Source: an uncultured Alphaproteobacteria bacterium
GTDB lineage: Bacteria; Pseudomonadota; Alphaproteobacteria; Rickettsiales; JALZUV01
Direction: 5' to 3'
DNA: 64,000 nucleotides
Assembly (NCBI GenBank): GCA_963837025.1
Contig: CAWILT010000002.1
Location: 422,554 to 486,553 of the forward strand
The position numbers and the translations under genes were made by a program. This document shows, piece by piece, positions 848 through 61,099 of this stretch. Numbering within the stretch: position 1 is the stretch's first letter; each line of letters starts with the position of its first letter. The notes beneath the pieces were generated by a model, which saw nothing but the letters and a program-made list of their open reading frames with translations, did not search any database and was not told the DNA's origin.

Positions 848-905
848 TCATTAGATTTCACACAACTGTAACACACATCATTGCGCGTTTTGATATAATC
901 AGCCT

Positions 906-1232
906 ATGAATAAAAAGCTATCAACTTGTTTATTAGTCGGCGCGGCTCTGGTTTTTACCAGTTGTCGACCACTTAGCTTGCAAATTATTGAGCCAGAAGG
1001 CCCAGCGGAGTATCAACTAGGCTGGCAAGATGGTTGTGATACGGGCTTATCAGCCGATAGCCCCATGTTCTATAAATTTATGTATGGTTTCAAAAAACGT
1101 CCTGAGATGGGCGCAAACGATCTTTACAAACAAGGTTGGAACGAAGGTTTTACCTATTGCCGCTTTACCTCGGGCGCAATTAGCTCATCAGGTGGTGAAG
1201 CCTCAAAAGGTATCTTTGGCGTATTCTACTAA
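906..1232 (+). CDS. small lipoprotein, unknown function
   Basis: Signal peptide with lipobox LVFTS-C (MNKKLSTCLLVGAALVFTSC). I recognise no family. Confidence 0.6.
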   Translation: MNKKLSTCLLVGAALVFTSCRPLSLQIIEPEGPAEYQLGWQDGCDTGLSADSPMFYKFMYGFKKRPEMGANDLYKQGWNEGFTYCRFTSGAISSSGGEASKGIFGVFY

Positions 1233-7595: not shown

Positions 7596-8461
7596 AATTG
7601 TTGCGATGCCTGTTGAACCAGTTTGATTTTAGGGCGAATAAACATGCGCTCGGGCACGCGTAAATCAATGGAGCTAATATCGGTTCCCGCCAGTGGTTGT
7701 GATTTTTGCAGCGCCTCTAATTGAACCAATGCGTTTTCTGGGTTCACCTCAGGCAATTTAATTTCAATACCATTAGCTAGCCAAATATTCCATCGACGTT
7801 GCCCTACATACACGGCTGAATCAAAGCTCTCTTTAACCTTTGGCGCCGATTTTAATAATTCCATCAAACTCAAGAAATTTTCAGGCGCTTGGCTACCCAC
7901 TAATAGCGGCAAATGATTATGCTTTACCGGATCACCATCGCCCATCAAAACCCCTTCATCATCAACTACAAATAATTGGTCTTTATCTTGCCATAATGCC
8001 GCAGCATAGCGCTCGCTGATTATGATATGCAAATCTCGCGGTAATTGACGGTTAATTACCACATGCCGAATTTGGGGAAGCGATTCGAGTTTCTCGCGTA
8101 ATTCAGGCAATGATACCTGTAAAATAGGTTGCCCAAACACCAAATCGCTGTGATGCAAAATGGCTTGTTTGCTTAGCTTATCATGCCCTGAAAGATAAAC
8201 GTTCGTAAGTTTAAAACCGACCTCTTTGGTTTGGTTGTAAAAGGCATTAACCGTTTGGTTTTTCCACATAGTGGCGGTGCCGCTCATAAATACCCAAATA
8301 AATGCAATTAGGGTAATGCCGCCTAAGCTACCAAATACAATCCATTTGGCGCCATAGCCAAATTTTTCGCGCCGCTTGCGTGTGGCGCGGCTACGCGATG
8401 CTCGCTCAAATTGACCCGCCCGCGTGGATGGTTTCGATTTTCCCATGATGATAATCTTCAT
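7592..8461 (-). CDS. ftsQ: cell division protein FtsQ
   Basis: Basic N-terminus, a single TM helix (WIVFGSLGGITLIAFIWVF) and POTRA/FtsQ-type periplasmic domains. It lies between ddl and ftsA. The start is uncertain (8461 or 8446). Confidence 0.8.
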   Translation of the reverse strand: MKIIIMGKSKPSTRAGQFERASRSRATRKRREKFGYGAKWIVFGSLGGITLIAFIWVFMSGTATMWKNQTVNAFYNQTKEVGFKLTNVYLSGHDKLSKQAILHHSDLVFGQPILQVSLPELREKLESLPQIRHVVINRQLPRDLHIIISERYAAALWQDKDQLFVVDDEGVLMGDGDPVKHNHLPLLVGSQAPENFLSLMELLKSAPKVKESFDSAVYVGQRRWNIWLANGIEIKLPEVNPENALVQLEALQKSQPLAGTDISSIDLRVPERMFIRPKIKLVQQASQQL

Positions 8462-9425: not shown

Positions 9426-9537
9426 TTGACTATCTTTAACCCGCCCAAACGTTTGATGCTATGAAAAATTTCTTCCAATCAATGCTTGACCCATCCACCT
9501 GCTTCGCCTAATTTCCCAAAAATTCCACGGAGCCTCA

Positions 9538-14175: not shown

Positions 14176-16182
14176 CTACTTTTGCCTGCTTTTTTTTGCG
14201 TGTGCTAAGGCATCGGCAGCGCGCTGGCGATAATCATTTTCTAACGTTTCAACCATCGTTAGATCATCAGCAGTAAATTGCCCAATGCCTTTTTCATCCA
14301 ATAATTTAGGGCCGTGTTCTGCAAATAAATTTTTCAAACTTTTATATTCATTATTTAGTTGTGATTTACGAATTAGATTATCGCATGAATCAATTTTAGT
14401 TTTTTTCTCATCAAGCATTTCATTAAATTTATAATAAAATAATGCGGCCATTGAAGGCGATGCATTATCGCGCACCGACTCAAATCGAATGGTGGTTTCT
14501 GCATCTACAATTTTATCATGTGCGACGCGCATAAAATCAGGGTGCGCGACAATTTTACGCGAGAAACTTTTAATATTTTCAAGCTGTATCATTGCTTCAT
14601 CGCTATATTTTTCGGGCGTTGAAAGCAACACATCAATGGTTCTATCTACGCGTTGCGAAAAAGCCTCGCGAGCCTTAACATCCTCAATTAAACTAGGATT
14701 TAGCTCGCCTCGTTCCCCCTTATAAAGCTCGCGCGCTAACTCGTAAAGCGGGTGGCAAAGTGGCTCTGCTTTAGAAACCGAAAGTGGATCTGATTTTGTT
14801 TCGCCAAATAATCCTATTCCCGGCTCATCCACACGCTTAGCGCTTGATATCCAGTTTAATGTGCCAGTGCCAACCATGCGCAACCCTTTATCGCCGGTTT
14901 TATCTCGCGTAATTAATGTATTTTCCCACCCTAGTTTAGGTTCAATCTCGGCTTTAACGCGATTATAAAAATACAAGGATGCCGCGTTTGAAAATACGGG
15001 ATTAATACGACTCAAATCACGCATTTTATTCCAGTTTGCGTCTTTCTCATCAAATAATTTATCAATCGTGCGCTTCCACGATTTAATGCCATTTTCATTG
15101 ATTTTAACGCCCGGAATATTCTCGCGATAAGCAGGGTTTGGTGCCACATCAATCATTTGCCAAAGCCGGTTGCGCACCTCCCGCGTTTTTAAAATCGCTG
15201 GATGATGCTTGCTGGCTAAGTTACGATAATTCTCACTTAAATCATTTACTTTTGGGAATGTTACTAAATTTAAATCAGCTAGAATGATATTTATTTGGCT
15301 ATCTTGTTTTGGTAGTCGGCTCTCAATACCATTACGAAATAATTCAATTTCCGATAAGCGGTTCTTTACCAATGATTCTAACGAATCAATCGCCACAATT
15401 TGGTCTGCATTATGCAGACCTTCATAATTTTGCGCTAAATCGTTCACTTTAATTTGTAAATCCATCAAATTAGATTGGTAATGATTGACGGCCGCAGTTT
15501 GTGCCTTACGCGATTCTTGAAATAACTGTAAACTAGCAGGCAATATAGCCGGATCTTCTAACGGTAGTTTTAAAACCCAGGTTTCAATTTCGCGGCGCAA
15601 ATCATAACTAGCTTGTGGCGATTTATCGCGCAAGGTGGCTTCAATGAAAGGCATTAATTCTGTCGCCATGCCTTTAGAAAAACCTTTCACCATATCCGCA
15701 TCTAACAACACACTAATGGTGTCATTTAATACAGCGACAGCGCTTTCATAATGGGTTATCTCTTCATTTTGATCTAACCGCATCAATAAACCTTCAGCAA
15801 GTGAAACGGCATTGGCGGTGGCGACGTTCACGCGAATTAACTCCTCTTGAACAATATTGCCATGATGTAAATAAAACTCTAAACCTTCAAAACTTTCACG
15901 CGTTTTACGATCAACAAATTGCGGGTTAAGTTGTAATTCATCTGGCTGTTGTTGTAGCCAATCCTCTAAGCGCGCATGTAAATGTTTAAACGGCGCGCTA
16001 TTATCTTTAATCGCAGCAAGCGTTTTGGGCTGCTTTAACTTATGAAAAAGCCCCAGCTCAGACCAAATCTCGTCATCTGGGCGAAATAACTCTTCACCTA
16101 TCACATCAAATTCCATCTGCACAGTATAGGAATAAAATGTTACTGATTGATGAAGATTTAAAAATTGAGTAGCATAAGGCAT
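14176..16182 (-). CDS. large hypothetical protein (about 650-680 aa); predicted soluble and helical, no recognisable domain
   Basis: Long uninterrupted ORF. The longest form starts at a TTG at 16212. ATG candidates are at 16182 (Met11) and 16116 (Met33). I saw no signal peptide, TM helix, P-loop or other familiar motif. Confidence 0.7.
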   Translation of the reverse strand: MPYATQFLNLHQSVTFYSYTVQMEFDVIGEELFRPDDEIWSELGLFHKLKQPKTLAAIKDNSAPFKHLHARLEDWLQQQPDELQLNPQFVDRKTRESFEGLEFYLHHGNIVQEELIRVNVATANAVSLAEGLLMRLDQNEEITHYESAVAVLNDTISVLLDADMVKGFSKGMATELMPFIEATLRDKSPQASYDLRREIETWVLKLPLEDPAILPASLQLFQESRKAQTAAVNHYQSNLMDLQIKVNDLAQNYEGLHNADQIVAIDSLESLVKNRLSEIELFRNGIESRLPKQDSQINIILADLNLVTFPKVNDLSENYRNLASKHHPAILKTREVRNRLWQMIDVAPNPAYRENIPGVKINENGIKSWKRTIDKLFDEKDANWNKMRDLSRINPVFSNAASLYFYNRVKAEIEPKLGWENTLITRDKTGDKGLRMVGTGTLNWISSAKRVDEPGIGLFGETKSDPLSVSKAEPLCHPLYELARELYKGERGELNPSLIEDVKAREAFSQRVDRTIDVLLSTPEKYSDEAMIQLENIKSFSRKIVAHPDFMRVAHDKIVDAETTIRFESVRDNASPSMAALFYYKFNEMLDEKKTKIDSCDNLIRKSQLNNEYKSLKNLFAEHGPKLLDEKGIGQFTADDLTMVETLENDYRQRAADALAHAKKSRQK

Positions 16183-16471
16183 GACCGAACTCGAAGTAAT
16201 TGATATAGCCAAAGATGCTTTATGGATATTGCTTATAGCGGGTGCTCCCGTGATGGCCTTGGCAATGGGAGTTGGCTTACTGATTGCGCTTTTTCAAGCA
16301 CTCACCCAAATTCAGGAAATGACCCTTACTTTTGTGCCTAAAATTATTGCTGTTTTTTTAGGTTTAATGGTTTTCTTGCCATTCATGTTTTCTACATTAG
16401 AGGATTTTACCATGCGCATGTTTGAACGTATGACCCAAGTGGGCCAGTTTGACAGCGATTTAGAGCAATAA
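16181..16471 (+). CDS. fliQ: flagellar export apparatus protein FliQ
   Basis: About 90 aa with two TM helices and the FliQ/EscS pattern (A...I..AGP....A...GL.I...QA.TQIQE.TL.FVPK). fliR follows. Confidence 0.85.
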   Translation: MTELEVIDIAKDALWILLIAGAPVMALAMGVGLLIALFQALTQIQEMTLTFVPKIIAVFLGLMVFLPFMFSTLEDFTMRMFERMTQVGQFDSDLEQ

Positions 16472-16475
16472 ACCC

Positions 16476-17240
16476 ATGAGCCTAGAGCAGTTTTTAGTCG
16501 GAGAATTATTCGCTTTTCTGCTCATTTTTGTACGTATTGGCTCAGGCATTATGGTAATGCCTGGTATTGGTGAAAGCTACGTAACTACGCGTGTACGCTT
16601 GGCTTTTGCACTTATAGTATCTCTCGCGCTATTGCCCCTGTTAAAACCGATAATGCCACAAATTCCTTCCAGCCCATTCGCTTTGGGGTTACTCATGTTT
16701 GGCGAAGTGGGCGTGGGATTATTTTTTGGCCTAATGGCGCGCGTTATTGTTTCGGCCATGCATACGGTGGGTATGGTAATGTCGTTTCAATCATCGCTTG
16801 CATCAGCAACCATGTTTGATGTGTCGCAGGCCAGCCAAGGTTCTGCTATTGGTAACTTTTTAAGTATTACCGCTGTATTGCTTATTTTTGTCACCGATAT
16901 GCATCATCTAATGTTGCAAGGCTTGGTTGATAGTTACAGCTTATTCATTCCCGGTGCAGCATTTCCGATTGGTGATATGGCCAATAACTATACACGGCTT
17001 GTATCGGACGTCTTTAACGTATCTATCAAGCTAGCATCCCCCCTTATCGCTATGGGGTTAATTCTATATTTAGGCGCTGGTGTTTTGGCGCGCTTAATGC
17101 CTAACATGCAGATATTTTTTGTAATTATTCCATTACAAATTCAGGTGAGTTTTTGGGTCATCATGATCACCATGAGCGGAATGTTCTTATGGTATCTTGA
17201 TTTTGTAGAAGAGCGCTTAAGTGCTTTTTTGGGTGCTTAA
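16476..17240 (+). CDS. fliR: flagellar export apparatus protein FliR
   Basis: 254-aa polytopic membrane protein with FliR-type sequence (F.L.F.RI......MPG.GE). It lies directly after fliQ. Confidence 0.85.
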   Translation: MSLEQFLVGELFAFLLIFVRIGSGIMVMPGIGESYVTTRVRLAFALIVSLALLPLLKPIMPQIPSSPFALGLLMFGEVGVGLFFGLMARVIVSAMHTVGMVMSFQSSLASATMFDVSQASQGSAIGNFLSITAVLLIFVTDMHHLMLQGLVDSYSLFIPGAAFPIGDMANNYTRLVSDVFNVSIKLASPLIAMGLILYLGAGVLARLMPNMQIFFVIIPLQIQVSFWVIMITMSGMFLWYLDFVEERLSAFLGA

Positions 17241-43669: not shown

Positions 43670-44320
43670 TTATTTTGATAAGGTAGATTCGACCGCTGCG
43701 TTTTGCGTGGCTGCTGTAAATTTTGACCAGCTTTGCCCGTCCGCACGACTCGTAGGTTGCGTGTGCTCTGGTTTGGTTGGCGCAAGTTTATCCGCAGCAG
43801 TTTCAATGGGGGAAGGAATAGGCGACGGGACAGAGGATTTATCGCGGGCAATAATGTTGCTTTGCGCTTCGCGGCGATCTTCATCATTTTCGATGCGCTC
43901 TTGTTGTTCGCGCGTTAAATTAGTTTGGATGTTAGCCAAGGCGCTATCGGTTGGTGCAAGGCCAGGATTAACAGGTATATCTTTTGTAGGGGCAATTTGG
44001 CTTCCCTGCATTCCACGCGTGGCACCTTTACCCATTTCAAATTCATCTGCGTAATGCCTTGCTGAAAGTTTGGTCTGACCTGAGCCTACTTTAAGTTTAT
44101 ACTCCTCACGCGTGCTATCGCGTTCAATATAAGAAAAAACAGCGCCTGCCGCTGATGCAGCCCCAGCAATGATGCCTGCAACACCACCAATAATTAATAC
44201 AGAATAAACAGCTACTGCGGCCAGAGCAACAAAGGCAGCACCCCAAAAAATCGCTTCATAACGCAACATGGTGCGTTCGCGGCCTTCGGTTTCTATTTCA
44301 TGTTCTACAGAATGACTCAT
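43670..44320 (-). CDS. hypothetical membrane protein with one Gly/Ala-rich TM hairpin
   Basis: The hydrophobic hairpin [43 protein letters not shown] is followed by a polar, P/S/T-rich tail. The antisense ORF looks like noise. Confidence 0.6.
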
Positions 44321-44410
44321 GATGTCACTATAGGGTATGAATTTTACAGTTTGATGACAACGCGTAACTTTGCTAAAAGAGCGCTAACGATAATTACGAT
44401 AAGAGCAACC

Positions 44411-45949
44411 ATGCCGCAGCAAGCAATTATTACCGAACTCGAAAAACGCCGTGAATCCGCACGTAACGGTGGGGGCGAGGCTCGCACCGCAAAACAACAT
44501 GAAAAAGGCAAACTCACCGCACGCGAACGGATTGAGGTGCTGGTTGATGCTGATTCTTTTGAAGAATTTGATATGTTTGTCGAGCATCGCTGCGAGCATT
44601 TTGGCATGGAAGATAACCGCATCGCAGGCGATGGCTGCGTTACCGGCCAAGGCACCATTAACGGGCGCTTAGTATTTGTTTATAGCCAAGATTTCACTGT
44701 TTTAGGTGGTTCGCTTTCCGAAACAAATGGCAAAAAAATCTGTAAATTGATGGATATGGCCATGAAAGTGGGTGCTCCCGTTATTGGCATGAACGATTCG
44801 GGCGGCGCGCGTATTCAAGAAGGGGTCGATTCGCTTTCAGGCTATGCTGAAATTTTTCAGCGCAATGTGTTAGCCTCAGGTGTAGTGCCGCAAATTTCGC
44901 TCATTATGGGCCCTTGCGCCGGTGGCGCGGTTTATTCACCCGCATTGACGGACTTTACCTTTATGGTTAAAGGCAGCAGCTACATGTTTGTGACTGGCCC
45001 CGATGTGGTAAAAACCGTTACGCATGAGGTGGTTAGCCAAGAAACGCTCGGTGGTGCTGATGTACATACGAAAAAGAGCGGTGTAGCTGATCGCGCGTTC
45101 AATCACGATATCGATGCCTTATTGCAAACGCGCCGCTTATTTAACTATCTGCCTCTATGCAACCGCAGCGGCGTGCCTTCACGCCCGACTCCTGATCCGG
45201 TCGATCGCATTGAAATGTCGCTCAATACGCTTGTTCCCGAAAATCCGAATAAAGCCTATGATATGAAAGAGCTTATCTATCGCATTGTTGATGAAGGCGA
45301 TTTCTTTGAAATTCAACCTGAATGGGCGAAAAATATTGTTATTGGTTTTGGTCGAATGGATGGTCATACGGTAGGGTTCGTTGGCAATAACCCCATGCAT
45401 TTAGCAGGCTGTTTAGATATTGATGCCAGCCGCAAAGCCGCGCGTTTTGTGCGCTTTTGCGATGCGTTTAGTATTCCATTAGTCAATTTGGTTGATGTTC
45501 CTGGGTTTTTGCCCGGTACCGCCCAAGAGCATAATGGTATTATCAAACATGGCGCGAAACTGCTTTATGCTTATGCCGAAGCCACTGTGCCTAAAGTTAC
45601 CATCATCACCCGCAAAGCCTATGGTGGTGCTTATATTGTAATGAGTAGCAAGCACTTACGCGGCGATGTAAATTATGCGTGGCCAACAGCCGAAGTGGCG
45701 GTAATGGGCCCCAAAGGCGCGGTAGAAATCATCTTCCGTGGCAGCCTTAAAAACAGCGCTGAGGCGGATAAAAAAGTGGAAGAATATCGCGAAAAATTTG
45801 CTAGCCCCTTTGTTGCCGCATCACGCGGTTATATTGATGATATTATCCGCCCACAAAACACGCGTGCGCGCATTTGTCGTTCACTTGGTATTTTACGCAA
45901 GAAAAAGCTCGAAAACCCGTGGAAAAAACACGATAATTTACCTTTATAA
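44411..45949 (+). CDS. pccB: acyl-CoA carboxylase carboxyltransferase subunit (propionyl-CoA carboxylase beta type)
   Basis: Typical PccB sequence ([51 protein letters not shown]). The ATG at 44411 is chosen. Confidence 0.88.
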
Positions 45950-46420: not shown

Positions 46421-46981
46421 ATGTTGAACCGAATTTTAAAAGCAACTGCACTAATGGCCACTGCGGCTGCTGTGCTTGTAGCCCCACTCACCGCATCTGC
46501 ATTTAGCACTGATGATAAAAATGTGCTTGTTGATCAGCGTGATAACATCGTGCGCGATGCTCGCGGCAACTGCGTTTACGTTAAATGGACTGATAACGGC
46601 AATAATTGTGACGAAGGTATCTACTTCACCACTGATGAGCGTAATATCTATTTCCCATTTGATAGCTCAGAATTAACACCAAAAGCACAAGCTAAATTGG
46701 ATTATATCGCTGAAAACGTGCTTGCTAAAGGCAATGTGGTTGAAGCAACGCTTGTGGGTTATGCGGATCCAATTGGTAACCCAACTTATAACGTGGCACT
46801 TTCGAAGCGTCGCGCTGTATCGGTTAAACAGTATTTAGCGTCTAAAGGGTATTTAAACACCACAGCAACTACCCTTATGGGCAAAGGTGAAACATCACAA
46901 TTTGCACCCAATTGTGGTGGTAATAAAGCGTGTTTACAACCAAACCGTCGCGTAGAGATCTTGTTTAAAAAAGTAAACTAA
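46421..46981 (+). CDS. OmpA-family (OmpA_C-like) protein with a signal peptide
   Basis: Signal peptide ending ASA. The OmpA_C signature is present (F.FDSSELT..A...L, GYAD.IG...YN..LS.RRA..V..YL, NRRVEI). AGGAG Shine-Dalgarno present. Confidence 0.85.
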   Translation: MLNRILKATALMATAAAVLVAPLTASAFSTDDKNVLVDQRDNIVRDARGNCVYVKWTDNGNNCDEGIYFTTDERNIYFPFDSSELTPKAQAKLDYIAENVLAKGNVVEATLVGYADPIGNPTYNVALSKRRAVSVKQYLASKGYLNTTATTLMGKGETSQFAPNCGGNKACLQPNRRVEILFKKVN

Positions 46982-47003
46982 ATTTACTTTATAATTTAAA
47001 AAA

Positions 47004-47030
47004 AGGGGGGCGTTAAGCCTCCCTTTTTTT
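47004..47030 (+). terminator. rho-independent terminator
   Basis: ggggggc-gttaa-gcctccc hairpin followed by a T7 run. Confidence 0.75.
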
Positions 47031-47129
47031 ATGCTTTCTGCCATCAATCTGAAACATAATCTTCATGCAACCGTAACACTTTACTCGCGCGTTATTTAGT
47101 AGAATGGAATGGAATAAATAGGAGTTTCA

Positions 47130-48845
47130 TTGAACGAAAACGAACAGCTTGAATTTGATCCACACGCGATAGATCACGGCAGCGCATCCAAAAAGATGAG
47201 CTGGAGCGCCTTTAAAGGGCACATCCGTGGCATCGTGCGTGGGTTGATTGTTGGCTGCACCATCGGTGCGGTAGTCGGCTTAGGCGTGTGGGGTTTGGGT
47301 GCAATTGGGCTTATCGGGGCTTTAACCGCAACTGCCGCACAAACTGCCGCCGTTTTTTCCGTAACTGCAGGCGTCCTTGCCAGTAGCTTGATGGGTCGTA
47401 TCGGTAATGCCGCAGGTAACGCTGCAGGTCAACTCGCTGAACAAGAGCTACGCTTGCGCTACCCCGAGCTGCCTGAGCTTTCGCCTGATGCTCCACAACC
47501 TGGCTACGGTCACCATCTTGAGATTCCAGCCGATCGCGATAAGGGAAAATTCTTCCACCCGCGCGTTGGCATTGCAGGCGCTATCATGGGCGGGCTATTT
47601 GGTGGTATTGCAAGTATTGCTGGTTTAGGTTCAATCATTGCCATGCACACTACCGCAGTTGTAGCCTTACCAGTACTTGCTCCGGTCATATTAGGCGCAG
47701 TGATGGGCAGTTCGTTTGGGGTAAATCGCAGCGTATTTAAAACCATCTTCAACTTCACTGACAATCTGATGCACGGAAAAGTGGGAGGCCCCACTCAAGA
47801 TGATCTTGCTAAAAACCGCGAGCTATACCGCTTGCAAGGCGACCCCGGGCCCGAACCCGTTATCACCAACTTGCAAAGGCAAGAAGAATTCTACCGTTTA
47901 GAAAACGGCTATTTCAAAAAAGCGTTCGAAGCGGGCTTTGCTGGCAACGGGCGCGGTTTGCTAGGTGGACTTGTTATCGGCGGCGGTATGGGCATATTAC
48001 TAGGCGGCGTGGCTGTTGGCGCGCTTGCATTATTTGGTGGCTTTGCCATTACCGGTGCTGGTGCGATGGCTATCATTGCGGGCATATCTGCTTTCACCAT
48101 GCATAAATCAGCGGATTTCTTTTCGGAAGCTATGTTTGAAGGCTCAAGCCATGATCACGTACACGAAGTCTATCACGAGCGGGTTCGGTCTTTGCGCAAA
48201 GGCGAAAATATCAGTTTCGATCAAGCCGAGATGAATATTGTTGAGCGCCGCCAATCTGACCCTGAATTAACGCCGGCCGCTTCACAATCGAAAGATGCGT
48301 TTAAGCCGCGTGTTGCATTGGTATTAGGGGCTGTTGGTGCTGCCATAGGCGTTGGTTTAACCCCAGTTATAGGCCCTATAGCTGGGGCTTTAGGGATTTC
48401 AGCGGGTAAAATATCATTAGGATTAAGCGCTTCAACTTTTGGTATGGCGGGCGCGTCGTTTGGTATTGGTCCCAAAATTACGGAGAAACTGCATAGTTTA
48501 TCAGACGCCATTTTTCACGGCGCATTCAACCCCGGTGTTGACCATCCAGATATTAAGGTCGAGGGCAGAATCCCCCTTATGTCGCCAAATTCTGATTTAG
48601 CAGAACATTTCAGCGTGCATCTTAAAAAATCAATCCCACAGATTGATAGTAACCGCGATGTGTCAGCTATCTATAAAGCACCCGCTGAACCACAATCCAC
48701 AGTCCAATCCGAAACACCTCTAGTTACGCCAGAAGTTAAACCAGAGCGTAAGCCCGCATTTACCGATATTATCAATAAAGGTGCGCGCAATTTAGAACAG
48801 CAAGTGTCGCAATCTATCGCTGCGCCGTCAGGGTTGGATCGCTAG
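47130..48845 (+). CDS. hypothetical polytopic membrane protein with four repeated glycine-zipper TM-hairpin modules
   Basis: TTG start with an AGGAG Shine-Dalgarno 5 nt upstream. It has four Gly/Ala-rich bilobed hydrophobic segments. Three of them end in a similar amphipathic motif (FTDNLMHG / FFSEAMFEG / LSDAIFHG). Confidence 0.75.
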   Translation: MNENEQLEFDPHAIDHGSASKKMSWSAFKGHIRGIVRGLIVGCTIGAVVGLGVWGLGAIGLIGALTATAAQTAAVFSVTAGVLASSLMGRIGNAAGNAAGQLAEQELRLRYPELPELSPDAPQPGYGHHLEIPADRDKGKFFHPRVGIAGAIMGGLFGGIASIAGLGSIIAMHTTAVVALPVLAPVILGAVMGSSFGVNRSVFKTIFNFTDNLMHGKVGGPTQDDLAKNRELYRLQGDPGPEPVITNLQRQEEFYRLENGYFKKAFEAGFAGNGRGLLGGLVIGGGMGILLGGVAVGALALFGGFAITGAGAMAIIAGISAFTMHKSADFFSEAMFEGSSHDHVHEVYHERVRSLRKGENISFDQAEMNIVERRQSDPELTPAASQSKDAFKPRVALVLGAVGAAIGVGLTPVIGPIAGALGISAGKISLGLSASTFGMAGASFGIGPKITEKLHSLSDAIFHGAFNPGVDHPDIKVEGRIPLMSPNSDLAEHFSVHLKKSIPQIDSNRDVSAIYKAPAEPQSTVQSETPLVTPEVKPERKPAFTDIINKGARNLEQQVSQSIAAPSGLDR

Positions 48846-49352
48846 ATGGCATTTGAAACCGCAAAATCACTTCTAACCGGTGCATCACGTGGCGCTCTAC
48901 GTGGCGCTGGCGTGGGTTTAGGCATCATGATGGTTGGTGGAATTATTGGCGCACTAACCATTTTCACCGCTGGGGCAGGTACATTAGGATTAGGCGCCCT
49001 CGCATTTACCGTTATTGCAGGCGCTATTGGAGGAGTCGTCGCCATTCCGCCGCTTACATTATTGGTTACCGGTTCATGCGCCGCCATTGGAGCATGTTAT
49101 CGTGGCGTATCCGATTTTGTCGATATGGCTGAAACGGTACAGGAAAAAGATACCCAAGTAGCCATCACACGCCAAGCAAACGAATCCGCAAAAAAACCGC
49201 CTAGCGTTAGCACTCATCTGACTCAGCCCATCATTGAAGATAAATTGCCCAGCTCAATCGATTCTAAAGAAATTCCTAAAAACTGGGTCAAATCCGTGAA
49301 CGCGCAAAAAGACAAATCGATGGCACAATCACAATCAGTTCCTAGCAAATAA
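48846..49352 (+). CDS. hypothetical membrane protein with one glycine-zipper module (paralogous to the upstream gene's modules)
   Basis: The ATG directly abuts the upstream stop codon. It has a Gly-rich hairpin (GVGLGIMMVGGIIGALTIFTAGAGTLGLGALAFTVIAGAIGGVVAI) followed by the VSDFVDMAE motif. Confidence 0.7.
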   Translation: MAFETAKSLLTGASRGALRGAGVGLGIMMVGGIIGALTIFTAGAGTLGLGALAFTVIAGAIGGVVAIPPLTLLVTGSCAAIGACYRGVSDFVDMAETVQEKDTQVAITRQANESAKKPPSVSTHLTQPIIEDKLPSSIDSKEIPKNWVKSVNAQKDKSMAQSQSVPSK

Positions 49353-49541
49353 ACTCTTTAAATTATTCGCCAAAACCTAATTTTACTTTAAATAATAGTG
49401 CGCCATTAACAAAGGCGTTTTTGTTGCGCTGGCATACGCACGTTTTCGACAGCGCATACAATAATCTTTATATTATCATTTGCTCCAGCGCAAATATCAA
49501 TCCACGCTCATCAGCAATCTCGTGCATTTCAATATAATGTA

Positions 49542-50417
49542 TTAGTTCCACTTAGAAATACTCTGCAAATATTTACCGTATGGACTAGACGAAAATTCCT
49601 GCGCTAAAGCGTGTAATTGTTCACGCGATATGGTTTGGCGCATAAATGCAGCCTCTTCAATACAACCAATTTTCAAACCCATTTGTTTTTCAACAATGCG
49701 AATAAAATTACCTGCATCAAGCAAGTTTTCAAATTGTCCTGCATCCATCCATGTGGCGCCACGGCTTAAATATTTAGCATTAATATTGCCCTCGTTTAAA
49801 TATAAACTATTTAGATCCATAATCTCTAACTCGCCACGAATTGATGCCGCTAACGATTTTGCCTTTTCAACCACGCTATTATCATAAAAATATAATCCAA
49901 TAGCGGCCATGTCACTGGTTGGATGCGTAGGCTTTTCTTCAAGCGATGTAATTGCACCGCTCTTATCACGATTAATAATTCCAAACGAACGGGGGTCGGT
50001 CACGTGCGCCCCAACCAGCCAAGCGCCTTTTTCTAATTGCATGCAATCATTAAAAAATTGGGTAAAATTAGCCATGTGCAAAATATTATCGCCTAAAATC
50101 ATGCATACCGCATCATCGCCAATAAAATCTTCACCAACAATAAAAGCATCAGCTAAACCTTTAGGCTCAGCCTGCACTTCATAGCGAATACGCACTCCTA
50201 AACGTGTGCCATCGCCAATTGCATCATATAATAACGGCACGTCACGCGGGGTGCTAATAATTAAAATATCCGTGATTCCCAAAAGCAAAAGGGTGCTAAG
50301 CGGATAGTAAATCATCGGTTTATCATAAACGGGTAAAAGCTGCTTACACACAAAATCAGTAATCGGCTTTAGGCGTGTGCCTTTGCCGCCTGCTAAAATA
50401 ATACCTTTTTTAATCAT
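49542..50417 (-). CDS. rfbA: glucose-1-phosphate thymidylyltransferase
   Basis: Contains KGIILAGG.GTRL.P.T....KQLLPVYDKPMIYYPLS..L..GI..ILIIS, the RmlA signature. Confidence 0.92.
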   Translation of the reverse strand: MIKKGIILAGGKGTRLKPITDFVCKQLLPVYDKPMIYYPLSTLLLLGITDILIISTPRDVPLLYDAIGDGTRLGVRIRYEVQAEPKGLADAFIVGEDFIGDDAVCMILGDNILHMANFTQFFNDCMQLEKGAWLVGAHVTDPRSFGIINRDKSGAITSLEEKPTHPTSDMAAIGLYFYDNSVVEKAKSLAASIRGELEIMDLNSLYLNEGNINAKYLSRGATWMDAGQFENLLDAGNFIRIVEKQMGLKIGCIEEAAFMRQTISREQLHALAQEFSSSPYGKYLQSISKWN

Positions 50418-50870
50418 TACTTTCACCACGTGTTCTAACCGGTTTTAACTTAACGATATAACATTTGAATGCAAATGCATTCAAAGCGAACCAAAACGTT
50501 ATCTTAGCAAAAATTTTCCATTAATAATTTACGCATTTAAAGAAATTTATGAATAAAAACTAATGCCACCAATATAACTCAAACTTTTCTAGCTTCATGA
50601 TCAATAACAGACTCTAACCTCAACACTGCTATATTTTCTATTTCAACACTTTACCATACTAAACATATTTTAAAATCTGTTACTTAAGCTAGTATAAAGA
50701 TATGTGAGAGATATCTGGAAAAAGAAATACATATATAATTTTTGTTAATACCGAGTAAATGATATATCGAATGTGTGTGATACTAAATCTTGAGAAATTT
50801 ATTCAAAAATTATGTTATATAACAATTTAAATAAGTTGTTTTTAAAATAGGTTAATAGAAGGAATAAAGG

Positions 50871-51728
50871 ATGAAAAATCAGCTTTCTATTGTTACTGTA
50901 GCTTTTAATAGCGCTAAAATTCTGCCTGCATTGTTGGATGAAATATCTACGCTTGAGCATGATATTATCATTATTAATAACAGCAGTGAGGATAACCTCG
51001 TTGAAATTGCATCCCGTTATAGCAGCGTTAAAATAATAGAAAATCAGAACACTGGCTATGGTAGGGGCGCGAATATAGGTTTCTCCCATACACATAGCAA
51101 ATATGTAGCTTTAATAAACCCAGATGTGAGACTGGAGCCAAATATTTTTCAAAAACTAATTGATGTTATGGAATCAAATGAAGAGATTGCCGTTATTGCA
51201 CCAAGAAGTTATGAATATAAAAATTCAAAAAAACTATATCAAAAATCTCTTAGCTTTGACAATAATGGGCTTTGTTTTATAGATACAGTTTCAGGGGCAT
51301 TCATGTTAATTCGCAAAGATGCGTTTGATTCTATAGTAGGTTTTGATAATAATATTTTTTTATTTTTTGAAGAAAATGATTTATGCAGGAGATTATCTAA
51401 GCAAGGATATAAAATTGCTATTCATGAGCATTCTGAATATGAACATGAAGAAGGTAATTCTTCAGGAATTAATGCCACAATTAGAAAGATTAGAGCTTGG
51501 CATTTTGCATGGTCTGGCTGTTATTTTACCGAAAAACATAATGGTAAATGTGCAGCTATAAAAAAAGCTGTAAGAATAATTCTTTTAAATGGAATAAAAG
51601 CTATTATAAAAACGGCTGCTTTTCAACATTACAAAGCTACTGCCCACTTTTACAAGTTACGTGGTGGTTTTGATTTCTTAATTGGCAAAAAAGCATTCGA
51701 TAACGATGGTAAAGCTAGATATACATAA
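50871..51728 (+). CDS. family 2 glycosyltransferase
   Basis: The GT2 pattern is present (SIVTV.FNS ... IIIINNSSED ... N.GYG.GAN.G ... INPDV). AT-rich gene. Confidence 0.8.
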   Translation: MKNQLSIVTVAFNSAKILPALLDEISTLEHDIIIINNSSEDNLVEIASRYSSVKIIENQNTGYGRGANIGFSHTHSKYVALINPDVRLEPNIFQKLIDVMESNEEIAVIAPRSYEYKNSKKLYQKSLSFDNNGLCFIDTVSGAFMLIRKDAFDSIVGFDNNIFLFFEENDLCRRLSKQGYKIAIHEHSEYEHEEGNSSGINATIRKIRAWHFAWSGCYFTEKHNGKCAAIKKAVRIILLNGIKAIIKTAAFQHYKATAHFYKLRGGFDFLIGKKAFDNDGKARYT

Positions 51729-51731
51729 AAA

Positions 51732-52796
51732 ATGAAAATACTATTTGTAGGTAATAGAAATTTAAAGCATTGCGGTGCTCGATACTATGATTCTGGTACA
51801 AAAATTATTAACGGATTAATCAGAGAAGGTCATAATGTTTATGTGATGTGTGATCGTGACATTGCACGCAACCATAAAATCCTCGGAATTAAATCTTTTG
51901 GAGTGAAATACTGCAATGAATTCTTCCTTAAAACCTGTATAAATTTTAAACCTGATATGGTTTTATTTCACCATGCTGATTTAATAACCATTGAAACTAT
52001 TAAAGAAGCAAAATCAGTTCTTACTCATGCAAAATTTGCGCAGTTTAATGTTGATATAATCTTTAGCCCACATAATATTGAAAATATAAAATCTAAGCTG
52101 CCCTATTTAGATGCTAGCTTTCATACTACGGCGGGAAAAGCACTTAAGGTTTTCTCTGGTTACAGAGCGATTATTAGCTACATTCCTAATCCGGTTGATT
52201 CATCGATAGACACCCCTAAATGCCATGAAAGTTCTAATCAAGAATACGACATATTTTGGGCAATGAGGGTAGGCAAAAGAACATTTAAAGGTGATAAACG
52301 TTTAGAATATCCCTTATTTTTAGAAAAAAATGAATCAGTAAAAATTGATTATTATGGGATGAATGGCAGGCCGCTATTATTTAATGCCGAATATTATCAA
52401 AAAATATCAAATTGTAAAATGGGGTTAAATATTAGCAGCAATAAAACGCTAGACGATAGTGAAGTAGCTAAACCAGAAGACCTATATCTTTACTCATCCG
52501 ACAGAATTTCCCAATATATGGGAAGTGGGCTTTTAACATTTGCATCAAGAGAAAACAGCCTACATGAATTATTTATAGAAGATAAAGAAATAGTATTTTT
52601 TGATTCAAAATATGAATTATTAGATAAAATTATGTATTATAAAAAAAATGATTCTGAACGTAAAAAGATAGCTGCAGCAGGCTGGCAAAAATCGCACACT
52701 CATTTCAACGAAAGGATCATTTCGAAATATATGGTGGAAACCACAATGCAAAAAAAATATAGTGAAAATTATCTTTGGCCAATTGATAAATACTAA
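51732..52796 (+). CDS. CgeB-like glycosyltransferase (Glyco_trans_1_2-type C-terminal domain)
   Basis: The C-terminus (VFFDSKYELLDKIMYYKKNDSERKKIAAAGWQKSHTHFNERI) matches the CgeB/YkvP-type pattern as I remember it. I counted 31 G+C in the first 100 nt. Confidence 0.6.
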   Translation: MKILFVGNRNLKHCGARYYDSGTKIINGLIREGHNVYVMCDRDIARNHKILGIKSFGVKYCNEFFLKTCINFKPDMVLFHHADLITIETIKEAKSVLTHAKFAQFNVDIIFSPHNIENIKSKLPYLDASFHTTAGKALKVFSGYRAIISYIPNPVDSSIDTPKCHESSNQEYDIFWAMRVGKRTFKGDKRLEYPLFLEKNESVKIDYYGMNGRPLLFNAEYYQKISNCKMGLNISSNKTLDDSEVAKPEDLYLYSSDRISQYMGSGLLTFASRENSLHELFIEDKEIVFFDSKYELLDKIMYYKKNDSERKKIAAAGWQKSHTHFNERIISKYMVETTMQKKYSENYLWPIDKY

Positions 52797-53101
52797 AAGC
52801 ATAATATATTATCGTTGCAAAAGGTTACCGATTAAAGAGTAATAATGAGTTAATTTTGGAAGATAATTAATTCTTAGCCAAAGCCATCAAGCGTGCTAAA
52901 TTTTTAATTAATCATCTAATATTAAGATCAAAAAAAACTATGATTTAGCCAATAAAAAAACAGCACAAATAACTAATAAGTTTATATAATCTTAATTTAA
53001 ATGATGTTTCAAAGGTAAATCAATTAAGTGGCTATCATTAATCTGTATCAAAACCGTTTGTGTCTCTGAGAAAAAATAAACTTACTAGAAATACCTAAAA
53101 C

Positions 53102-53176
53102 TGGTGCCACCTACAAGAATCGAACTTGTGACCTCTTCATTACCAATGAAGCGCTCTACCCCTGAGCTAAGGCGGC
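53102..53176 (-). tRNA. tRNA-Thr (anticodon GGT), CCA encoded
   Basis: The reverse complement folds into a cloverleaf: acceptor GCCGCCT/AGGTGGC, D arm GCTC/GAGC, anticodon stem CTTCA/TGAAG with loop TTGGTAA, and T arm ACAAG-TTCGATT-CTTGT. Confidence 0.9.
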
Positions 53177-53189
53177 CGATGTTTAGGGG

Positions 53190-53218
53190 TTCATACAACA
53201 ATGCGGTATAGCTCGCAA
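53190..53218 (-). promoter_or_regulatory. candidate sigma70-type promoter for tRNA-Thr (TTGCGA - 17 nt - TATGAA on the minus strand)
   Basis: The hexamers and spacing were counted by hand. The -10 ends about 13 nt upstream of the mature tRNA 5' end. Confidence 0.35.
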
Positions 53219-53316
53219 GTATCTTAATGAAGCCTCACTACATTCAGATATTATTTAAAAGAGTCTTACGTAATGCACATTGAAAAAACGCTAGAAATAG
53301 TCTATAGTTTCTAGGC

Positions 53317-53454
53317 ATGAAAAATCCCTCAGATAAGCCAGCATCACTTGATGTAAAAAAGCCAAAACCGCAGCTTGCCGCTGCATTGCGCGCGAACTTA
53401 AAGCGCCGTAAGGCCGCTGCCCCTGCGAAGAAGGGCTCCAATAGTGAGCCATAA
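53317..53454 (+). CDS. possible very small basic protein (45 aa)
   Basis: ATG-initiated ORF MKNPSDKPASLDVKKPKPQLAAALRANLKRRKAAAPAKKGSNSEP. It is absent from the ORF track, which appears to list only ORFs of about 60 aa or longer. It is preceded by the inverted repeat ctagaaa...tttctag. Coding status is unproven. Confidence 0.3.
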   Translation: MKNPSDKPASLDVKKPKPQLAAALRANLKRRKAAAPAKKGSNSEP

Positions 53455-53749
53455 GCCACCCAAACATCCCCATACTGCAAAAGAGAAAAAAGCGGCACGC
53501 ACGGCAAAAAATCGTGCTTTGTTTGAAATTTTTACCGTTGCCAATCGTGCAGCCGATAAATCCGATGTGGGGACGCCTGAAATTATCGCACATGCAGAGC
53601 CACAAAAAACGATGGTAGAGCTAAAAGAGGAAGATGCGCTGGAACGCGTACAGCAAATTCGTAACCGTATTTCAGGCCGAAGCCGCGCCTCAAAAGATAA
53701 GTGGAATCGCTTTGCCGGCACTTCTGGCGGCGGTGGTCGCGGCCGATAA
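53444..53749 (+). CDS. hypothetical basic/charged protein (101 aa)
   Basis: GTG-start ORF with K/E/A/R-rich plausible protein sequence ending in a GGGGRGR tail. The three overlapping minus-strand ORFs are R/S/C-rich and look like antisense noise. Confidence 0.4.
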   Translation: MSHKPPKHPHTAKEKKAARTAKNRALFEIFTVANRAADKSDVGTPEIIAHAEPQKTMVELKEEDALERVQQIRNRISGRSRASKDKWNRFAGTSGGGGRGR

Positions 53750-53790
53750 TTATGCCTGACAACCTCTAAAATTAATGCTACGCAAGAGCG

Positions 53791-54021
53791 ATGGAAAGCG
53801 ATATAACACAGTTTGTTCAATCGGAAATGGGCTTCATTTTTGCTATTGGAATGATTGTAGTGGGGCTGGCCGATTTAGCCAGCGGCATCTACATCATGCG
53901 CCACCGCCCCGATTTAATGCCCCTCCCGCCCGAAAAAATTAAAACCTTCATGACCGCCATTTATTTCATCGCAAGTCTACTGGTGCTTACAGGGTTTTAC
54001 ATGCTGTATTTGAGGATTTAA
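53791..54021 (+). CDS. small 2-TM membrane protein (76 aa)
   Basis: Two clear hydrophobic helices (FIFAIGMIVVGLADLASGIYI, FMTAIYFIASLLVLTGFYMLY). Its stop abuts the tdh start. Confidence 0.5.
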   Translation: MESDITQFVQSEMGFIFAIGMIVVGLADLASGIYIMRHRPDLMPLPPEKIKTFMTAIYFIASLLVLTGFYMLYLRI

Positions 54022-55070: not shown

Positions 55071-55841
55071 TTAAAAGGCACTGTAAAAATCAATAGAACA
55101 TAGTACGGTGGAATCGCTCAACTTATAAGCGGCACTTGCGCCACTTCCCGTGTAACAAGCTGTCACTTGTGTGTTAACTGCGCCTGTATAGGGCAAGCCA
55201 TCATCCATTTTAACATCAATGTTATATAATTCTTCAGGCGTAATAATGCCGCTCGGACTCGGATAGAAGTTTGCGCCACTGGCAGAACCATAAATGAGCA
55301 TATTGCCATACTTTCTTCCTGAACTATCACCCCCAGTCGCAGGCCCGCCTGAACTACGCCCTTCAACCGCCCAATAAGATCCAGAAAGTGATCCGTTGGG
55401 CACATTACTAGAGGGTATTGGAACAAAATTTCTTCCTCCCGTATAATTACCCTGAATAATGTCTGAATTTGCGAGATGCTTCCAAAAATTTAAATTTTCC
55501 ATCTGCTCGAAGTCATTCATATTTAAATCTTCTAATTTAAAATTCCCATTTCCATTGCAGGTTACTTGTGTAGTCGAGTCAATCGCCGCACAATCTGAAC
55601 CCTTGCCATCGCCACCATCGGCTGTTCCCCAATATGCGGTAGCATTTGGCATGTCACCCGGAAGGGCGTTATATTTGAGTTTAAATGTGTTGACCGCAAC
55701 TTGGTATTTAGTAAATTCTTTTGGAATAGATTGTAGTCCAGAGCTGCGAATTAACGCTGAACCTGCTGTCACGCCGCCAATAATCAACCCAATGATAACC
55801 AATACAATCGATAGCTCTAAAAGTGTAAAACCGTGTTTCAT
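55071..55841 (-). CDS. prepilin-type N-terminal cleavage/methylation domain protein (pilin/pseudopilin-like)
   Basis: MKHGFTLLELSIVLVIIGLIIGG is a class III signal (G/FTLLE) plus hydrophobic helix. The C-terminal domain of about 220 aa is Gly/Ser/Asn-rich with four Cys. Confidence 0.75.
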   Translation of the reverse strand: MKHGFTLLELSIVLVIIGLIIGGVTAGSALIRSSGLQSIPKEFTKYQVAVNTFKLKYNALPGDMPNATAYWGTADGGDGKGSDCAAIDSTTQVTCNGNGNFKLEDLNMNDFEQMENLNFWKHLANSDIIQGNYTGGRNFVPIPSSNVPNGSLSGSYWAVEGRSSGGPATGGDSSGRKYGNMLIYGSASGANFYPSPSGIITPEELYNIDVKMDDGLPYTGAVNTQVTACYTGSGASAAYKLSDSTVLCSIDFYSAF

Positions 55842-58565: not shown

Positions 58566-59102
58566 TTACCAAGCGTTTCCTTTGATTCGCTTTATCACAA
58601 ACTTTGAGGAGCGTGCTCCACAAAATTCGTTGATGTGGCTGTCATCGGCCTCGGGTGTCAACAGAGACATCTGCTGCAGCAATTGTCGTAGCCAAGTGGT
58701 CTTGGCGGCGGCCTGCTGCGTCAGCTTGGTGGAATATTCCACGCGCGGATCTTTTCGCTCTTTGGAGGCGTTACACTCTTTGAGCGCGCGAAACAACACC
58801 CAAACGAAGTCATCGTAATGCTTCGGGGTAATGTTGCGCACAAAGTGAGTGCCCTCGCCTTCTAAGCAAAAGCATATGTGCTCATCTTTAGGACAAAAGG
58901 TGATTTTCATCACCTTATCCCAATTGCTTCGAATGGTGAGGAAGCCATGCGCTGGCTTGTAATCCTCATCATGCGAAATAACACCGTATAGGCGCCAGTT
59001 GGCAAGCTTTGAGTCTACCTTAATCCCGTCCCCATTATCGGTTACGGTTGCGCTTACTTGGGCATACTTTGCCAAGTCGCGCAGTAATTGGAAATCGATC
59101 AT
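58566..59102 (-). CDS. cassette 2 ORF, hypothetical protein (178 aa from the ATG at 59102; the ORF track extends to a GTG at 59156)
   Basis: The ATG at 59102 gives an N-terminus (MIDFQLLRDLAKYAQ) that aligns with the cassette 5 N-terminus (MVDEAQLRELFKNAW). It also gives a leader of about 150 nt, like the other cassettes. Confidence 0.7.
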   Translation of the reverse strand: MIDFQLLRDLAKYAQVSATVTDNGDGIKVDSKLANWRLYGVISHDEDYKPAHGFLTIRSNWDKVMKITFCPKDEHICFCLEGEGTHFVRNITPKHYDDFVWVLFRALKECNASKERKDPRVEYSTKLTQQAAAKTTWLRQLLQQMSLLTPEADDSHINEFCGARSSKFVIKRIKGNAW

Positions 59103-59259
59103 GTGATTCGATTTAAAAAGTGACAATCTCCAAAACGGAAAATTGTAATTTCTCACCTCCCATTCTACATCACCTTAATAAAAAGATGAGCGTCAAGCGT
59201 GTGAATTTAAATGACGGCAAAATGCTGTAAAACCAAAATTGAGGTAAGAAATATGCAAT

Positions 59260-60646: not shown

Positions 60647-61099
60647 TCACCAAGGTCCAAGCGCATAGATGCTTGGGGCATCCAGCACGTTTACATGCGC
60701 ATAGTGATGCTGCATTAAACGTGATAGCTTCGCGCCTTGCTCTAGTAGCTCTGGCGAGAAACTTCCTAAGCAATCAGCTTCCAAAATCGCCTTGCGGATT
60801 AGGCTTGAAAGCTGGCTAACCTCACTTTTATATAAGTAAAGTTCGCACTTCGCAAAGGCTCCCGTAAAGAAACATTTGTGAATTTCCTTGGTCGAAGGCA
60901 GCATCACGAAACGTAACTCTCGTTGCTTTCCTTCGAAAATGGAAATGTCGAAAAAGGAGACTAGCTCATTTTCGAACACAGCCAGTACTTCCAGTCTCCA
61001 TGAGAGGTAGCTGGACTTGAAGATGACAAGATTGCCACCTTCAACCGGTGAATGCCACGCGTTTTTGAACAGTTCGCGCAACTGAGCTTCATCAACCAT
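60647..61099 (-). CDS. cassette 5 ORF, hypothetical protein (150 aa)
   Basis: The ORF lies between a conserved promoter/leader and a terminator. It shows weak N-terminal and central similarity to the cassette 2 protein. Confidence 0.7.
   Translation of the reverse strand: MVDEAQLRELFKNAWHSPVEGGNLVIFKSSYLSWRLEVLAVFENELVSFFDISIFEGKQRELRFVMLPSTKEIHKCFFTGAFAKCELYLYKSEVSQLSSLIRKAILEADCLGSFSPELLEQGAKLSRLMQHHYAHVNVLDAPSIYALGPW

Follow-up and report, generated by a model that had tools for sequence, protein, structure and literature searches.

Glycine-zipper helical hairpins occur in several described groups of membrane proteins. The Pfam glycine-zipper families (Rick_17kDa_Anti PF05433, Gly-zipper_YMGG PF13441, Gly-zipper_Omp PF13488 and Gly-zipper_OmpA PF13436) are built on a domain of about 45 residues, a Gly-rich (G/A/S)xxxG two-helix hairpin, and are usually lipoproteins with a signal peptide. 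The Inc proteins of Chlamydiae, which are substrates of a type III secretion system (T3SS), carry a bilobed hydrophobic hairpin of about 40-60 residues whose flanks lie on the same side of the membrane, followed by helical or coiled-coil extensions; they are poorly conserved and form large paralogous sets. Mic10 of the mitochondrial MICOS complex and other hairpin proteins that shape membranes through glycine motifs have transmembrane (TM) hairpins in which each of the two helices carries conserved glycine motifs, and the termini of Mic10 face the intermembrane space. Here we analyze a two-gene locus, genes A and B, in a stretch of 64,000 nt (hereafter the window) from an uncultured Rickettsiales-like alphaproteobacterium (contig CAWILT010000002.1, positions 422,554 to 486,553), together with a more distant gene, C, that has a related architecture. 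A and B resemble the known glycine-zipper hairpin membrane proteins in packing logic and Incs and Mic10 in architecture, and our comparisons indicate that A belongs to a conserved, lineage-specific family of predicted membrane proteins that is placed in no named family, as the initial annotation of this DNA had proposed.

The differences from each of these systems are substantial. Membership of A and B in the Rick_17kDa/YMGG-type families is not supported: A, B and C have no Pfam or NCBIfam match at E <= 1, both A and B begin with polar or amphipathic residues and lack a hydrophobic signal or lipobox, and A has four hairpins and conserved, predicted cytoplasmic motifs instead of one small domain. 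Nine relatives were likewise below the Pfam cut-offs, the best being a half-size homologue with 19 bits to PF13441 (cut-off 28.9). The likeness to Incs is one of architecture, not homology, and consists of uncharged stretches of 49-66 aa with a short turn. The A family is alphaproteobacterial, strongly conserved, present in one copy per locus read, embedded in housekeeping synteny and equipped with two to four hairpins per protein, and we found no Pfam match to Incs (the IncA model included) and no match by sequence or fold in the PDB. Given the connection of mitochondria with alphaproteobacteria, a comparison with Mic10 is tempting; A and B also combine hairpins with conserved glycine motifs and would oligomerise. 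However, there is no Pfam match to the Mic10 family, A and B are much larger and have extensive soluble motifs, and their termini are predicted by the positive-inside rule to be cytoplasmic, which is equivalent to the matrix and thus opposite to Mic10. We also discarded the F/V-ATPase c-subunit proteolipid (ATP-synt_C), for which there was no hidden Markov model (HMM) match and no Asp or Glu inside the predicted helices.

A word-index search with A returned 20 homologues with 29-64% identity, nearly all of them full-length, and a profile search of 1.84 billion representatives returned 222 proteins at E <= 1e-3. About 40 of these are full-size (480-690 aa), and some 100 half-size proteins (310-390 aa) contain a single a+b unit. 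Members that carry a name are, without exception, annotated as 'hypothetical protein' and come from metagenome-assembled genomes (MAGs) labelled Rickettsiales or Alphaproteobacteria, the samples being freshwater, pond and marine. Scans of A, B and C against PADLOC gave no match and against PHROGs only noise (E >= 0.1; tape-measure and holin models). PDB sequence searches with B and with profiles of the full-size and half-size families (A1 and A2, the latter from 60 sequences) gave no match, and Foldseek searches of the PDB with models of A and of the single unit gave a best E of 0.38 and TM-scores of at most 0.31, with alpha-pore-forming toxins (SmhB, AhlB) and BAR domains in the lists as noise only. 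A literature search on glycine zippers or bilobed hydrophobic domains in Rickettsiales found nothing relevant, and neither the A family nor its promoter box seems to have been described so far.

The repeats could in principle be a low-complexity artefact of composition in non-functional reading frames, since Gly/Ala-rich sequence inflates scores and the blastp matches between A and B and between A and C largely vanish after composition correction. This reading is in effect refuted by the homologues, the alignment, the shuffle nulls and the profile search, and we regard its probability as negligible: full-length homologues reach down to 29% identity, their indels are in frame and their non-hydrophobic motifs invariant, the same-type module pairs score above the column-shuffle nulls with z values of 13-25, and the locus has a Shine-Dalgarno sequence as well as a promoter and a terminator (Table 1). 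Across the family alignment, mean column identity is 41%, with the juxtamembrane motifs and zipper glycines invariant, and the first 22 residues of A are conserved throughout the family. The TTG start of A is well supported by the AGGAG five nt ahead of it and by the closest orthologue (locus L007, 64% identity), which opens with ATG at the equivalent position (MNENEHDEF...).

The three reading frames and all of the peptides quoted in the initial annotation were found (in A, GLLGG...IIAGI at aa 276-319 and VALVLG...ISAG at aa 395-426), but its description of A as four copies of one module needs refinement. A does contain four uncharged double-hydrophobic stretches of about 50 aa, as B contains one of 66 aa and C one of 43 aa. 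When the 16-sequence A1 alignment was cut into four module profiles (M1 to M4) and these were compared by hhalign against a column-shuffle null, M1 matched M3 (probability 92.6%, E 4.5e-7, z 13) and M2 matched M4 (97.8%, E 8.7e-13, z 25), whereas the cross-type pairs were only weakly similar (3-38%, z 2.7-5.9). The N-terminal half of A aligned with the C-terminal half over 202 columns (99.2%, E 3.3e-19). On the strength of these same-type matches, the weak cross-type scores and the alignment of the halves, A is a tandem duplication of a two-hairpin unit in the order a-b-a-b. The half-size family matches the N-terminal half of A (99.9%, E 9e-33), and the a-b unit also stands alone as a protein of about 330 aa in related genomes.

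The amphipathic segments that follow the hairpins divide along the same line. FTDNLMHG (aa 209-216, in GSSFGVNRSVFKTIFNFTDNLMHG) and LSDAIFHG (aa 457-464, in GASFGIGPKITEKLHSLSDAIFHG) are homologous type-b tails, so that this part of the proposed single motif stands, but FFSEAMFEG (aa 330-338, within ADFFSEAMFEG of M3) belongs to a type-a tail, to which VSDFVDMAE in B (aa 88-96) is similar. B itself, which had been taken as one more copy of a generic module, shows modest similarity to modules of type a (z 6.3 with M1 and 6.8 with M3). A search of the window with the module HMM, our survey for further paralogues, found no additional copy.

In A, the glycine zippers go beyond composition. The hairpin regions of A contain 20 GxxxG motifs, compared with 11.5 after shuffling of residues within those regions (P = 0.002), and 10 GxxxGxxxG motifs (P = 0.0003). 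In B (P = 0.18) and C (P = 0.10), each taken alone, the enrichment fell short of significance. The glycines of two six-turn zippers (G30-G50, G272-G292) show little or no variation among the 16 homologues, G30, G34, G38, G42 and G50 and G276, G280, G284 and G288 being strictly invariant.

Several observations support the view that A and B form a unit, as expected of the two-gene locus originally described: the TAG stop of A directly abuts the ATG of B, and a Gly-rich hairpin partner gene lies downstream of the A-family gene, at gaps of -4 to +14 nt, in 11 of the 13 loci with complete downstream sequence. B evolves faster, with 38% identity to its L007 orthologue against 64% for A, and both B and C are faster-evolving than A. 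The word-index search with B matched B alone; its orthologues were taken from genomic context, and those in L007, L001, L014, L005 and L006 had E-values of 5e-29 to 2e-4 after composition correction. In half-size loci, the A-half is followed by a B-type protein of 217-251 aa, and two of the three such loci with gene context have a third gene of about 150 aa, whose single readable copy (L013) is B-like. In L006, the A/B pair is followed (8338-9506, + strand) by genes for two proteins of about 200 aa that are paralogues of each other (30% identity, E 2e-14) and both have short GxxxG-rich segments and a C-terminal coiled coil; this suggests that further small subunits of the glycine-zipper kind can join the hairpin operon.

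Abutting genes are also what one would see if A were a glycine-zipper toxin or bacteriocin that depolarises membranes and B conferred immunity to it, as with Cdz toxins or the effectors of type VI and type VII secretion systems. Glycine-zipper toxins with an adjacent small membrane immunity protein are known, EsxX being an example (PMC12744356). However, A and B lack secretion, LXG, Rhs and PAAR domains and have no secretion genes in their vicinity, the PADLOC and PHROGs scans gave no match and no significant match, respectively, and A is the more conserved of the two proteins, with both orthologous across genomes. The locus is vertically inherited, syntenic and single-copy, whereas typical toxin pairs are patchy and polymorphic, and A occurs without B in L004 and L020, a combination that should be lethal were A a toxin. 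We consider this explanation very unlikely.

The family is also tied to a regulatory element. A 22-nt direct-repeat box with the consensus TTGTCATAAAAACTTAACACTC lies upstream of the A-family gene in 17 of 17 loci, whatever the upstream neighbour. Its invariant positions are T4, A6, A10, A11, T15, A17, C18 and T21, and an A-rich spacer separates its two half-sites, which lie 11 bp apart. In 13 of the 17 loci the distance from the box to a downstream TATAAT-like hexamer is 20-22 nt, with 21 nt in the window; in others it is 9-11 nt. In the window, the A/B hexamer is not preceded by a good -35 element, which suggests that the promoter is activator-dependent. Two other interpretations of this region were rejected: a sigma-EcfG promoter (GGAAC-N16-17-CGTT), because the GCAAC-N18-CGTT of the window is not conserved in orthologues, and a plain sigma-70 -35 element (TTAACA), because 20-22 nt is too long a distance to the -10. 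The terminator that ends the preceding gene, the Shine-Dalgarno sequence and the -10 hexamer together indicate that A/B is a transcription unit of its own.

A position weight matrix (PWM) of the box, built without the window site, gave four matches of at least 15 bits in the window, compared with 0.24 expected from first-order Markov simulations. All four are intergenic, promoter-proximal, correctly oriented and followed by a -10 hexamer. Besides A/B, they precede gene C, an open reading frame (ORF) for a 108-aa lipoprotein-like protein and a 646-aa ORFan. In these three cases the hexamer lies exactly six nt before the ATG (44318-44332 and 16114-16128 on the - strand, 894-908 on the + strand), which suggests that three of the four window boxes drive leaderless mRNAs. 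It also makes it probable that the mechanically called ORF at 14176..16212 is over-extended and truly starts at the ATG at 16116. In other loci, boxes were found in L001 at 12760(-), L006 at 10261(+), L014 at 2245(+) and 4085(+) and L007 at 754(-); genes preceded by boxes in these loci encode a 496-aa RTX-repeat protein (PF00353, in L014), a protein with TM and coiled-coil segments and two ORFans. A/B, C and several lineage-specific envelope or secreted proteins thus appear, from their shared box, to constitute a regulon.

Half-sites at this distance with an A-rich spacer are characteristic of winged-helix response regulators of the OmpR/PhoB family, and the box looks like a site for such a regulator, either PhoB-like or CtrA-like. 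The Pho box consists of two 11-nt direct repeats with a CTGTCAT core (PMC4415409), and CtrA sites read TTAA-N7-TTAA at the -35 position, the first half often being degenerate (PMC11264516). Like both, our box has direct half-sites at this spacing and lies over or just upstream of a missing -35, but in sequence it is a hybrid of the two consensus sequences and its distance to the -10 is mostly 20-22 nt. For comparison, the E. coli Pho box lies about 10 nt from the -10. The first half-site matches the PhoB core in most loci (TGTCAY, CGTCAT) and, set against CtrA, reads GTCA, TTCA or GTAA, with two to three of four positions in agreement. The second half-site is Pho-like (TTCAC) in half-size loci only; elsewhere it is TTAAC, the CtrA half-site (9 of 17 loci), or GTAAC (5 loci). 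The PWM scan found no box at the ftsZ and ftsA genes of the window, and no response-regulator gene was found within the window.

Gene C had been noted as a similar single hairpin. The similarity holds for architecture and for the upstream box but not for sequence beyond composition: blastp of C against A and B gave E-values of at least 0.045 uncorrected and no match after composition correction, and the module HMM gave E >= 0.31, so that we rejected C as a homologue of A or B. It is the shared box, not homology, that ties C to the A/B locus, and C is probably co-regulated with A/B. An orthologue of C in L007 (39% identity, E 3e-24) is also preceded by the box. The listed start, at 44300, of a propionyl-CoA carboxylase beta-like ORF on the + strand overlaps gene C and its promoter (44300-44413); judging from the start of the L007 orthologue, the real start is probably near 44414.

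The AlphaFold2 (AF2) model of A is all-helical with long hairpins (pLDDT 68.7, pTM 0.68), as is that of the single-unit, half-size protein (pLDDT 81.2), and the second helix of the hairpins runs on into the soluble part, for example as a 67-residue helix in the unit model. The C-terminal tail of A, from about aa 500 to 571, is predicted to be disordered. The hairpin turns of A contain no or one charged residue and the inter-hairpin loops 7-14 Lys/Arg each; by the positive-inside rule, we infer an N-in/C-in topology for A with eight TM helices in four hairpins, minimal periplasmic exposure and all of the conserved polar motifs on the cytoplasmic side. In the family alignment, indels cluster in the hairpin turns, and neither the composition of A nor the 16-homologue alignment places an Asp or Glu inside any predicted helix.

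Based on these analyses we can present a rough proposal. A and B would be co-translated subunits, possibly together with C, of an inner-membrane complex of glycine-zipper helical hairpins. The hairpins would span the inner membrane with a minimal and variable periplasmic turn, and the termini and conserved polar motifs would face the cytoplasm. The invariant GxxxG faces would pack helices tightly within A and between A, B and further copies, leading to an oligomeric membrane assembly for which the conserved juxtamembrane helices could serve as a cytoplasmic platform. A/B would be made only once a phosphorylated regulator of the OmpR/PhoB family, PhoB-like or CtrA-like, occupies the -35 region, and would share its regulon with other envelope and secreted proteins characteristic of a particular physiological or developmental state. 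We have little doubt about the components from which this proposal is assembled, namely the a-b-a-b duplication, the type-a-like and fast-evolving B, the abutting genes with a terminator ahead of them and a promoter of their own, and the box before C and two other ORFs. To the composite, an inner-membrane A/B hairpin complex under response-regulator control, we would give an even chance.

Several points weigh against the proposal. Two of the A helices, TM2 and TM8, are only weakly hydrophobic (Kyte-Doolittle values, KD, of 1.22 and 1.05), which makes a full membrane span uncertain. The 66-80-aa hydrophobic region of B and its orthologues could form two, three or four helices, and with three the tail of B would be periplasmic. 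The lack of a hairpin partner gene in L004 and L020 means that B is not obligatory. On the regulatory side, the half-sites are split, the first PhoB-like and the second CtrA-like, and neither the window nor the other loci hold a target gene diagnostic of PhoB or of CtrA. Nor does anything point to a specific biochemical activity: the helices conserve no polar or charged residue within the membrane, and the structure searches gave no fold match. Finally, the source genomes are Rickettsiales or Alphaproteobacteria MAGs and the regulon includes an RTX-type secreted protein, so that a host-directed role is possible.

One alternative is an oligomeric glycine-zipper ion or solute channel in the inner membrane, formed by A with B as an auxiliary subunit. 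Glycine zippers are reported to be over-represented in homo-oligomeric channels such as VacA, MscL and KcsA, the (GxxxG)n faces of A are long and invariant, and a conserved juxtamembrane R/D/T-D motif could act as a gate. However, a channel would sit poorly with helices that lack any conserved polar or charged residue and with periplasmic turns that are short, variable and unconserved; Foldseek found no fold similarity to any channel in the PDB, and the long cytoplasmic helical extensions look structural. We therefore think a channel rather unlikely. For the inner-membrane A/B complex, the absence of conserved polar residues in the helices, the unconstrained periplasmic turns and the long cytoplasmic helices lead us to a weak preference for a membrane-organising scaffold over a conducting channel, a functional assignment that we offer as a tentative one.

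The second alternative takes up the host-membrane role raised by the initial annotation, in which A, B and C would be secreted effectors that insert their hairpins into a host vacuolar or organellar membrane, with their coiled-coil or polar tails exposed to the host cytosol, as in Incs. Bilobed hydrophobic domains of about 50 aa with long helical or polar extensions are consistent with it. The helices of A are moderately hydrophobic (KD 1.05-2.04), being rich in Gly, Ala and Ser, and moderate TM hydrophobicity is said to favour escape from insertion into the inner membrane. The labelling of all named source genomes as Rickettsiales or Alphaproteobacteria MAGs, the box shared with the RTX-repeat secreted protein of L014 and a FliR/SctT-family export gene in the window (16476..17240) also fit. 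Much of the remaining evidence points the other way. The family is highly conserved, TM helices included; A is a single copy in each locus read and has no paralogue in the window; its K/R-flanked helices fit ordinary inner-membrane insertion; and there are no secretion-system genes adjacent to it, the FliR-family gene being solitary and probably flagellar. Across deep divergence, the gene also holds one constant place among housekeeping genes. Each of the three half-size loci with context has the operon between DUF1467-proS-lolCD-dnaE and rnj-coaX-birA-nuoN, and DUF1467 also adjoins the full-size forms in L004 and L005, which points to vertical inheritance from an ancestral site with later relocation in the lineage of the window. 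Vertical inheritance argues for a cell-autonomous role. One carrier is a 2.3-Mb contig with broad metabolism, including homogentisate and aromatic catabolism, and other carriers of the family have flagellar genes. An Inc-like role is thus weakened, and we consider it quite improbable.

A broader speculation, which we also regard as unlikely, is that A and B, and perhaps C, form the structural core of a hitherto unrecognised membrane system specific to Rickettsiales-like bacteria. This glycine-zipper hairpin lattice would remodel the bacterium's own membrane or, after export, that of a host. It would be reserved for a single developmental or nutritional state and controlled by a CtrA- or PhoB-type regulator, along with a dedicated regulon of ORFans that are lineage-specific and belong to the envelope or are secreted.

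Uncultured Rickettsiales-like Alphaproteobacteria matter for the origin of intracellular lifestyles, and their lineage-specific membrane proteins are almost wholly unannotated. The present analysis defines a family-level unit, comprising the a-b module, its duplicated form and the partner genes, that matches no described family or fold, and it links this unit with a conserved cis-regulatory box shared by a small candidate regulon of envelope and secreted ORFans. An anonymous hydrophobic ORF thereby becomes a testable system: its promoter element can serve to identify the regulator, its subunits can be probed for interaction and topology, and the PWM can trace the regulon through MAGs. Should the proteins turn out to be ordinary membrane components with housekeeping roles, the work would be of value mainly for a new DUF-type (domain of unknown function) family and a regulon motif.

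Table 1. Positions of the genes, modules and putative regulatory elements of the A/B locus and of other box-bearing genes in the window.
Feature	Positions	Strand	Details
Gene A	47130..48845	+	571 aa, TTG start; from ORF list, composition, homologue alignment, structure model and charge counts
Module a1 (M1)	47193..47465	+	aa 22-112; amphipathic lead-in, (GxxxG)5 zipper helix G30...G50, second TM helix, GRIGNAAGN..ELRLRYP tail
Module b1 (M2)	47547..47795	+	aa 140-222; FHPRVG lead-in, hairpin, GSSFGVNRSVFKTIFNFTDNLMHG tail
Module a2 (M3)	47913..48164	+	aa 262-345; YFKKAFEAGFAGNGRG lead-in, (GxxxG)5 zipper G272...G292, hairpin, ADFFSEAMFEG..HDHVHE tail
Module b2 (M4)	48291..48539	+	aa 388-470; FKPRVA lead-in, hairpin, GASFGIGPKITEKLHSLSDAIFHG tail
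Gene B	48846..49352	+	168 aa; RGALRG type-a-like lead-in, 66-aa uncharged Gly/Ala-rich region, YRGVSDFVDMAE tail, polar C-terminal tail
Gene C	43670..44320	-	216 aa; single Gly/Ala-rich hairpin at aa 23-65, long polar tail
Box, A/B operon	47060..47081	+	TCTTCATGCAACCGTAACACTT; 21.8 bits; then 18 nt, TAGAAT, 24 nt including AGGAG, TTG
-10 hexamer, A/B	47100..47105	+	TAGAAT; no good -35
Shine-Dalgarno, gene A	47120..47124	+	AGGAG; 5 nt ahead of TTG start
Box, gene C	44339..44360	-	TTGTCATCAAACTGTAAAATTC; 19.8 bits; then 6 nt, TATAGT (44332-44327), 6 nt, ATG of C
Box, 108-aa lipoprotein-like ORF (906..1232)	855..876	+	17.0 bits; then 17 nt, TATAAT, 6 nt, ATG
Box, 646-aa ORFan (14176..16116)	16135..16156	-	15.6 bits; then 6 nt, TATACT, 6 nt, ATG at 16116
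Intrinsic terminator of OmpA-like gene	46997..47031	+	AAAAAAGGGGGG-loop-CCTCCCTTTTTTT; 12-15 bp stem, then T run
Candidate terminator after B	49400..49424	+	GCGCC-9 nt loop-GGCGT, then TTTTTG; found by eye; weak

The gene upstream of A (46421..46981) is of the OmpA family, as first annotated (PF00691, E 4e-14). Its position ahead of the locus is a fact, but we dropped a functional link, since a strong terminator separates the genes and their adjacency is not conserved: an OmpA-like gene adjoins A only in the closest relatives (L007 and L001/L003) and is absent in distant loci. A similar terminator precedes the A-family gene in L007, L001, L006, L009 and L016. The candidate terminator after B was passed over by the terminator scan, as its loop exceeds 8 nt.

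Otherwise the window is an ordinary piece of chromosome, with ftsA, ftsZ, carAB, ligA, recN, rpsA, recQ, addA and lpxC. The FliR/SctT-family gene lies on the + strand (PF01311, E 5e-53), divergent from the box-bearing 646-aa ORFan, and has no flagellar or T3SS genes beside it. On the - strand at 1236-3146, a 636-aa protein combines a long, acidic, Ser/Gln-rich N-terminal region with pentapeptide repeats (PF00805, E 2e-28), a coiled coil and a C-terminal hydrophobic hairpin, a mix of domains that looks unusual and effector-like. The region 50000-54000 is an island of low GC content (0.32-0.375, about 0.45 elsewhere); it holds ORFs that are glycosyltransferase-like by eye and adjoins an RmlA-like gene at 49542..50429(-), so that it is probably a horizontally acquired surface-polysaccharide cluster. 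Several sizeable ORFs had no Pfam match, among them those on the - strand at 14176-16116 (the 646-aa ORFan, as above), 55071-55841, 58566-59156 and 60647-61099, and the genome carries a notable load of lineage-specific proteins.

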